This document shows, one piece after another, positions 12,001-15,000 of a stretch of DNA of 64,000 bases (its first letter is position 1; each line of letters starts with the position of its first letter). The stretch is from assembly GCF_013122565.1 (NCBI RefSeq), contig NZ_CP053258.1. One strand, written 5' to 3'. This DNA comes from Escherichia coli (GTDB lineage: Bacteria > Pseudomonadota > Gammaproteobacteria > Enterobacterales > Enterobacteriaceae). Made by a program: the position numbers.

Positions 12001-15000
12001 CCGGGCTGTATATCAATGTATTTGGCTTGCGGTGGCGTAAAGCGGTAAAGGTGGGTTAATAAGCCCCGAGATGTCGGGGCCAGAACAAACTACATAGCGT
12101 GTTGATTATAATAGGGCACGCCGAGCGCATCCGACTTATCACTGCCAGTACCCATGTGATTTAAATCAAACGGTGGTTGTTCCTGCGATGGGGGAACAAC
12201 CACGACATTGGCACAGGAAGTAACAACTGGCTGCGTGGTTTGTTCCGCAACGCCCTGCGCGGAAAAGAGAATAAGCGCAGCTGCTATTGCGGATAAAAGT
12301 GGTTTCATGATTGCCTCAGTGACGTTGTCACGTTATCAACTAGCTGTTGTAATGATTTAATGGATGTAAAAAGCGCGATTCGCCCTGCATATTGGTCATC
12401 CGGTATTTATGCGGCGGAACATCAAAGTAATTTTTGAAGGTTCGGGTCAGAGTTTGTTGCGACTCGAAGCCATATCGTTCTGCCAGATAGAGTATCGGCT
12501 CGTTACTTTCCTTCAGCTTTTGCGCGATTTCCGTCATCTTACGGCTGCGGATGTATTGGCCTAATGAATGACCGGTTTCTTTTTTAAACATCCGTTGCAG
12601 GTGCCATTTAGAGTAACCCGAACGCTCTGACACTTTCTCCAGTGACAGTGGCGATTCCAGGTTGTCCTCGATCCAGTCCAAAATGCTATGAATGGTAATA
12701 GCGTCAGTATTGCGTCTGGACATCGTCATACCTCTTTTTTTGTTTACGGCAGGACTTTCTTAAGCAAATGCTCAAGTGTTGCCACTTCGTCCGCCGTCAG
12801 GTTTTTTGTTAATTCTTGGTGCAGGTCCTGGCCAACTAATTGATGGCATTGTTCACATATTGCCGCGCCGCTGGTGGTAAGTTTTACCAGTACGCCGCGC
12901 TTATCATTCGGGTTCGGCAACCTTTCCACCCAGCCTTTACAGACCAGGCGATCCAGCATACGGGTCAGTGCTCCAAGGTCGACCGACAACACTTTTTTCA
13001 GTTCAACCGGAGTAATACACGCCGCGCAGCGGATAGAGCAGAGCACCTTAAACTGTGCCGCGGTAATATCCAGCGGAGACAGATACTCGTTAAGCAGGCG
13101 ATCTTTCTTCTGATTAACCATATGGATTAAGCGACCCAATGGAATAATTTCATTGAACAGATCGCTGGTACTTTTCACATTAGTTGCCCTGGCAAGTAAT
13201 TAGTTGCAGAGGATAATATTGCCCAGGCAAGTATAAGTCAAATGAATGAATTGACCGATGCCACGTTTTGCTAAATCGGTTCAAGTTTTGGTCAATGCGA
13301 TGCAAGGTTAGCTAAAGAGTGACACTTTATCCTTCTTTACCCCTTATACTTTTCGCTGATAACCCAGATACACAGGATAACAACCACCAATGTTAGATTT
13401 GTTTAAAGCAATTGGCCTGGGGCTGGTGGTGTTACTGCCGTTAGCTAACCCATTAACAACTGTCGCGTTATTTCTTGGCCTGGCAGGCAACATGAACAGT
13501 GCCGAACGTAATCGTCAGTCGTTGATGGCCTCGGTGTACGTCTTTGCCATCATGATGGTGGCGTATTACGCCGGGCAACTGGTGATGGATACATTTGGCA
13601 TTTCGATTCCCGGTCTGCGAATTGCAGGCGGCTTAATCGTCGCGTTTATCGGTTTTCGGATGCTTTTTCCGCAACAGAAAGCGATTGATTCACCGGAGGC
13701 GAAAAGCAAGTCGGAAGAGCTGGAAGATGAACCCAGTGCCAATATTGCCTTTGTGCCACTGGCAATGCCAAGTACCGCCGGTCCGGGAACCATAGCGATG
13801 ATTATTAGCTCTGCGTCCACAGTGCGTCAGAGTTCAACCTTCGCTGATTGGGTACTGATGGTTGCGCCGCCGCTGATCTTTTTCCTTGTGGCGGTTATTT
13901 TGTGGGGAAGTCTACGCAGCTCTGGCGCAATTATGCGGCTGGTGGGTAAGGGGGGCATTGAAGCGATCTCCCGTCTGATGGGATTTCTGCTGGTATGTAT
14001 GGGGGTGCAGTTTATTATTAACGGCATCCTGGAAATCATTAAAACGTACCACTAAAAAAGGCCCGAATGGGCCTTTCAACTATTGCGTCTGTTCTTCGAG
14101 TGTCACTGGCCAGCGGCGGAAAATGATGATTGACCATATTAACGCGGCAAAAGCAGGCACCGCGCCCACATAACCAATCATCGACATTGACCAGTGCAGA
14201 CTTACCTGATTACCTACCAACGCACCCGCGCCGATTCCAATATTAAATATCCCGGAGAATAGCGCCATCGCGACGTCGGTGGCATCTGGTGCCAGCGCCA
14301 GCACTTTAACCTGCATACCAAGCCCGATGATCATCATCGCGATCCCCCAGAAAATACTCAGCACCCCGAGGTGTATTTCACTGTTCGCCGCAGGTAGCAG
14401 CAGTGCCAGGCACACCAGCAACAGTGCAATCGCCGTACTCACCAACCCAGACGCATACTGATTACCCAGTTTACCGAAAATCACGCTGCCAATAATGCCC
14501 GCACCACCGAGTAATAACAGTAATGCCGTGGCAAAGTTGGCGCTGAATCCCGCAATGTTTTGCACAAAAGGCTCGATATAGCTGTATGCCGTGTAATGGG
14601 CAGTGACAACCACCACAGTTAACAAATAAATGCTCATCAATGCCGGGCGGCGGAACAATAGCGGGAGGCTTTTCAATGAACCGGAATGCTCACTGGGCAG
14701 TAAGGGAAGTAACTTAATCAGGCACAAAAGGGTAATAAGCGCCCCGATACCAATCGCGAAGAAGGTCATTCGCCAACCGAAATACTGCCCCACAATGCGC
14801 CCGAGAGGTAATCCTAATACCATTGCCAGTGCTGTACCTGTGGCAATTAAACTCAATGCCTGTGCTCGCTTCCCGGCCGGAGCCATACGGATCGCCAGGG
14901 ACGCCGTAATCGACCAGAAAATCGCATGTGCAAAAGCCACACCAATGCGACTGATCACCAGAACGGTAAAGCTCCACGATAAAAACGACAGTACGTGGCT

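Follow-up and report, generated by a model that had tools for sequence, protein, structure and literature searches.

The stretch of E. coli DNA analysed here (the window, 64,000 nucleotides) very probably carries an intact and ordinary marRAB locus of a non-K-12 strain, in which MarR has the ancestral, majority residues Ser103 and His137 and K-12 MarR is the derived form. Observed directly were the residues themselves, how frequent they are in the population, which residues the outgroups carry, how variable the two alignment columns are, and the intactness of the operators. The functional neutrality of S103/H137 is something that we infer or take from the literature.

MarR and the mar locus in comparison with K-12

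The marR gene occupies 12744..13178 on the minus strand, stop codon included, and encodes a protein of 144 amino acids from a GTG start. The product matches the NCBIfam MarR equivalog NF008565 (PRK11512) over residues 1-144 of 144 with a score of 320.1 bits against a cut-off of 240, and it matches the MarR chains of the PDB with E = 3.6e-92. MarR, the multiple antibiotic resistance repressor of E. coli, holds down marRAB transcription until salicylate or copper relieves it. K-12 MarR (b1530, NP_416047; PDB 1JGS, 3VOD, 3VOE and 5H3R) is likewise a protein of 144 amino acids with a GTG start, and 142 of the 144 residues are identical. Codon 103 (12870..12872, minus strand) is AGC, encoding Ser, in place of GGC (Gly) in K-12, and codon 137 (12768..12770, minus strand) is CAT, encoding His, in place of TAT (Tyr). 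Ser103 stands in the peptide VKLTTSGAAIC, and the peptides that an earlier note on this DNA had quoted around residues 103 and 137 agree with the translation counted from the start codon.

That note had given G103 and Y137 as the K-12 residues, had allowed that K-12 might itself carry S103/H137, and had proposed a pairwise alignment with K-12 MarR. Over residues 1-144, the K-12-derived sequence of PDB 3VOE differs from MarR of the window at G103 and Y137 only, and translation of MG1655 marR (NC_000913 1619120-1619554) gives exactly two changes from K-12 to the window, G103S and Y137H. Both references thus have G103/Y137, as the note had it, and the two substitutions are the sole amino acid differences between the proteins. 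Six nucleotide differences separate marR from its K-12 counterpart: four are synonymous (12993, 12990, 12975, and 12903) and two are non-synonymous (12872, giving G103S, and 12770, giving Y137H).

The marR DNA haplotype of the window is unique among complete genomes, while the protein is very common. The closest complete genome is identical at 434 of 435 nucleotides, and the synonymous T at 12975 (marR codon 68), which occurs in 545 complete genomes, is never found there with the exact flanking bases of the window (12948-13002). An identical RefSeq protein, WP_000843419.1, is annotated as MarR in E. coli 06-00048, M10, and ECNB21-M121; marR of strain M10 and that of the window show zero amino acid differences.

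marR and the divergently transcribed marC (13390..14055, plus strand), whose product is identical to that of K-12, face each other across a control region of 211 bp. All elements of this region lie on the minus strand and were located by exact pattern matches, with no difference from K-12. The element farthest from marR, at 13258..13277 (GATTTAGCAAAACGTGGCAT), is the marbox bound by MarA, SoxS, and Rob. The hexamers TTGACT (13236..13241) and TATTAT (13213-13218) are the -35 and -10 elements of the marRAB promoter. MarR operator site I is TACTTGCCTGGGCAATATTAT at 13213..13233, which includes the -10 hexamer. The sequence abutting the GTG start, TACTTGCCAGGGCAACTAAT at 13179..13198, is operator site II as reported by Martin & Rosner 1995. 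The impression that the operator palindromes and the marbox are intact is therefore borne out by exact agreement with K-12 at both sites, both hexamers, and the marbox.

Five positions in the marC-marR interval differ from K-12 (13210, 13291, 13308, 13335, and 13388), none of them within the operators, hexamers, or marbox. Position 13210 is T on the mar (minus) strand, C in K-12, and A in strain 06-00048. This base belongs to neither palindrome: it sits between sites I and II, 3 nt downstream of the -10 hexamer. The T is found in 103 of 5,426 complete genomes (1.9%), including those of strains M10 and UMNK88, and this rare C-to-T change could alter the basal strength of the marRAB promoter in the lineage of the window.

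marA (12340..12723, minus strand) encodes a protein of 127 amino acids that is identical to K-12 MarA and scores 294 bits against the NCBIfam MarA equivalog. marB (12090..12308, minus strand; 72 amino acids) matches the MarB equivalog profile and differs from K-12 MarB by S5L and H44Q, both of which are frequent in clinical isolates (PMC8597741). The order marB, marA, and marR on the minus strand, followed by marC on the plus strand, equals that of the annotated K-12, 06-00048, and M10 loci, and the arrangement marC / marO / marRAB / eamA is common to K-12 and the window. The run of A residues between the marR stop codon and the marA Shine-Dalgarno sequence (12741) has seven bases in the window and in 06-00048 and six in K-12. 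At the 3' end of eamA (12056-12059), a 3-nt deletion drops the C-terminal Ser, and the protein ends in AVKVG.

Frequency and ancestry of residues 103 and 137

Alleles were counted in 5,426 complete E. coli genomes by megablast with 55-base queries carrying the single nucleotide polymorphism at position 28. An exact 28-base word is required, so each query matches only genomes that have its own allele. Ser103 was found in 4,222 of the 5,426 genomes and Gly103 in 1,190; for residue 137, the counts were 4,220 for His and 1,194 for Tyr. marR is present in 5,415 of the 5,426 genomes and the allele pairs sum to 5,412 (residue 103) and 5,414 (residue 137), which validates the counting. S103/H137 is thus the majority state of the species, with ~78% of the complete genomes in a collection that is a non-random sample of it. 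G103S and Y137H had been described beforehand as common natural polymorphisms; they are that, and S103 and H137 are even the majority alleles. The polymorphism is well documented, and G103S combined with Y137H is the commonest MarR substitution pattern among Norwegian isolates (PMC7082582).

The two sites apparently travel together, a linkage deduced from how closely the counts agree and from published work. In a large protein collection, the exact MarR of the window occurs on at least 1,000 contigs, under the name MULTISPECIES MarR and from sources that include Shigella sonnei, and K-12 MarR also occurs on at least 1,000. Forms with a single substitution are found as well, S103 only on 758 contigs and H137 only on 515. 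Of 60 G103 carriers sampled at even intervals, ~16 are recognisable from their names as laboratory derivatives of K-12 or B (W3110, DH1, C41(DE3), NEB10-beta, HB101, MC4100, ET12567, and others), and the remainder are isolates from humans, pigs, chickens/poultry, dogs, cattle, and water. The K-12 allele is therefore a natural one that is over-represented through laboratory strains.

The ancestral state was read from a scan of orthologous loci with one genome per species, in which 80 loci were listed and 61 of the 80 could be parsed. S103 and H137 occur together in E. whittamii, Escherichia sp. E1V33, Escherichia sp. MOD1-EC7003, and E. albertii, and also in the divergent "E. coli" SCPM-O-B-8794, which has 92% nucleotide identity to the window. 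Because all five of the non-coli or divergent Escherichia genomes examined carry S103/H137, this pair is taken as ancestral and G103/Y137 as derived. On this comparison of sequences, G103/Y137 is a derived minority pair in a lineage that includes K-12. The earlier note was thus right that S103/H137 differ from K-12, but its label of "variant" reflects reference bias, as the outgroups reverse the direction of change.

The sole G103/Y137 locus among the 80 listed species representatives is on a contig filed under a Caldithrix metagenome-assembled genome. This 31-kb contig (SMXE01000224.1, "MAG: Caldithrix sp.") has a mar locus of K-12 type and is 98.2% identical to the window, as is MG1655; it is most likely contamination with E. 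coli K-12.

Both positions are variable beyond the genus. The 61 of 80 Enterobacteriaceae orthologue loci that were parsed show D, H, E, S, or G at position 103 and H, L, or Y at position 137. In an alignment of 33 Enterobacteriaceae MarR sequences with a mean column identity of 93%, columns 103 and 137 are among the few without a majority residue. In Citrobacter and elsewhere, both Y137 and H137 occur, independently of the residue at position 103.

Position in the fold, drug susceptibility, and competing interpretations

An AlphaFold model of the MarR monomer of the window (mean pLDDT, 79.4) has helices at residues 4-36, 40-48, 57-64, 68-80, 102-115, 118-124, and 129-142 and strands at 84-88 and 96-100. 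The predicted fold is a winged helix-turn-helix with N- and C-terminal helices for the dimer domain. Residue 103 is modelled in the first turn of helix 102-115 (alpha-5), just past the second wing strand (96-100), and residue 137 within the C-terminal helix (129-142). In the model, both residues are outside the recognition helix (68-80) and the wing tip. In the 1JGS structure, the C-terminal helix that bears residue 137 packs into the dimerisation domain. At the start of a helix, Ser, Asp, Glu, or His would be usual, and the Gly of K-12 would then be the unusual residue.

Published susceptibility data agree with the view of the earlier note that the pair is regarded as phenotypically neutral. 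Levofloxacin resistance, at whatever level, was not associated with S103/H137; fully susceptible isolates carry the pair, which is present both in resistant isolates and in those with levofloxacin MICs of 0.016-0.25 ug/mL (PMC4317672). According to a passage of PMC11753663 that cites Oethinger 1998, and which is thus a secondary citation, G103S/Y137H are known to leave the repressor activity of MarR unchanged; the same paper reports them in a parent strain susceptible to tetracycline and chloramphenicol. They are also described as common in clinical isolates and not shown to raise AcrAB-TolC activity alone (PMC8597741).

Some genome reports still list G103S/Y137H as resistance mutations, repeating the pipeline label [quoted passage not shown] The repetition of this label is what speaks for reading S103/H137 as mutations that weaken repression of marRAB, raise MarA and AcrAB-TolC, and confer ciprofloxacin and tetracycline resistance. 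We consider that reading very unlikely. The residues are ancestral in the genus and present in most E. coli genomes, and if S103/H137 did cause derepression, the resulting level would simply be the one that is normal for E. coli. Both positions vary naturally and are located away from the predicted DNA-contacting elements named above, fully susceptible carriers exist with no MIC association (PMC4317672), and the pair is reported to be without effect on repressor activity (in the passage of PMC11753663 already cited) or on efflux (PMC8597741). Loss-of-function marR mutants (for example, L33R, A70T, G15S, frameshifts, and deletion of 97-107) affect the same gene and are often tabulated together with G103S/Y137H. 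These mutants come from tetracycline/chloramphenicol selection or from clinical Mar strains, arise under selection, hit conserved residues, and raise MICs 4- to 16-fold. S103/H137, in contrast, are ancestral, fall at variable columns, and have no MIC association. A resistance-conferring marR mutation would be a substitution derived from the species wild type, and S103/H137 are not derived in this sense, because ~78% of complete genomes and the five outgroup or divergent genomes carry them. The resistance label on the pair arises because K-12 serves as the reference. The opposite suspicion, that G103/Y137 is a laboratory artefact restricted to K-12 stocks, is almost certainly wrong: many of the sampled G103 carriers are indeed K-12 or B derivatives, but most are natural isolates with genome sizes and coordinates unlike those of K-12, and 1,190 genomes carry G103.

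A subtler alternative, which we hold to be unlikely, is that the two alleles are not strictly equivalent and differ by a slight shift in MarR stability, dimerisation, or inducer response, without clinical resistance, perhaps as a compensating pair. The two non-synonymous changes are near-equal in frequency (1,190 and 1,194), just four synonymous differences separate marR of the window from that of K-12, and Gly at the helix start is unusual against S, D, E, and H in all other taxa; residue 137, moreover, is placed in the C-terminal helix, which in 1JGS packs into the dimerisation domain. Against this, low recombination within a gene of 435 bp explains the linkage without selection, the single-substitution proteins occur on hundreds of contigs (758 and 515), Y137 and H137 are both found in Citrobacter and elsewhere regardless of residue 103, and no phenotype has been reported (PMC4317672, PMC11753663 in the part that bears on repression, and PMC8597741). 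That G103/Y137 is functionally unlike ancestral MarR in stability, dimerisation, or inducer set-point, and that, separately, T at 13210 may shift promoter strength, is a combined proposition to which we give little credence. If G103/Y137 were indeed non-equivalent, the biochemical work on MarR of the past three decades and every solved structure would apply to a minority allele and not to the typical form of the species.

Under the preferred interpretation, an intact locus with the ancestral form of MarR, the S103/H137 protein would still dimerise, bind operator sites I and II, and repress marRAB to the normal degree; S103/H137 alone would be expected to give no derepression or efflux phenotype. 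G103/Y137 would be a derived and apparently linked pair in the K-12/laboratory lineage and in a minority of natural isolates. The biological import is small, as the mar locus is normal and intact. The practical consequence is one of reference bias: with K-12 as the reference, "G103S, Y137H" is called in about four-fifths of E. coli genomes and then repeated as resistance mutations. The allele counts and outgroup states give a quantitative reason to treat S103/H137 as wild type.

Genomic setting of the window

The non-K-12 origin that had been proposed from the MarR residues is confirmed by comparison with MG1655, to which the window shows 107-108 mismatches over 6.4-6.5 kb (~98.25% identity). 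Among the 5,426 complete RefSeq E. coli genomes, identity to the window reaches at most 98.7% over 8 kb and 98.9% over 19 kb, and the whole window (1-64000) is ~1.1-1.5% diverged from the best-matching of them, with the differences evenly spread. Mismatches to strain M10 are also fairly even, at ~6-26 per kb. Contigs that encode an identical YdeA still differ in DNA by 1.8-2.7%, and the exact YneK and Dcp proteins of the window were not found in an index of 153 billion genes. A Logan contig from run SRR11451224 is 100% identical over 41750-54910 of the window (13 kb).

The differences are mostly synonymous, with 76% of them at third codon positions, and 23 of 23 compared genes are intact. The source of the window appears to be a natural, rarely sampled E. 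coli lineage, because its genes are intact, the changes are mostly at third positions, and there is a single insertion element. A mosaic or recombinant origin of the divergence is unsupported, as the mismatches to the best genomes show a fairly even distribution. A Shigella-like or perturbed sequence was likewise rejected, on comparison with complete E. coli genomes, given the 23 intact genes, the proportion of third-position changes, and the presence of one insertion element only.

An element of the IS200/IS605 type is located at 25538-27335, between tam and the lsr operon, with tnpB (402 amino acids) on the minus strand and a tnpA open reading frame of 193 amino acids on the plus strand; the insertion site is occupied in strain ECNB21-M121 and empty in strain M10. 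The segment from ~43790 to 58665 is missing from the best-matching complete genome. At 44148-48910, beside hipBA, are genes for an AIDA-I-type autotransporter adhesin (1,195 amino acids) and an Aah/TibC-type O-heptosyltransferase (386 amino acids), and just 5 contigs in the public collection encode the exact heptosyltransferase protein. A further autotransporter, of the ECSE_1600 family, is encoded at 36457-41877; its 1,806 amino acids are intact in the window, and the copy in strain ECNB21-M121 is broken by IS1.
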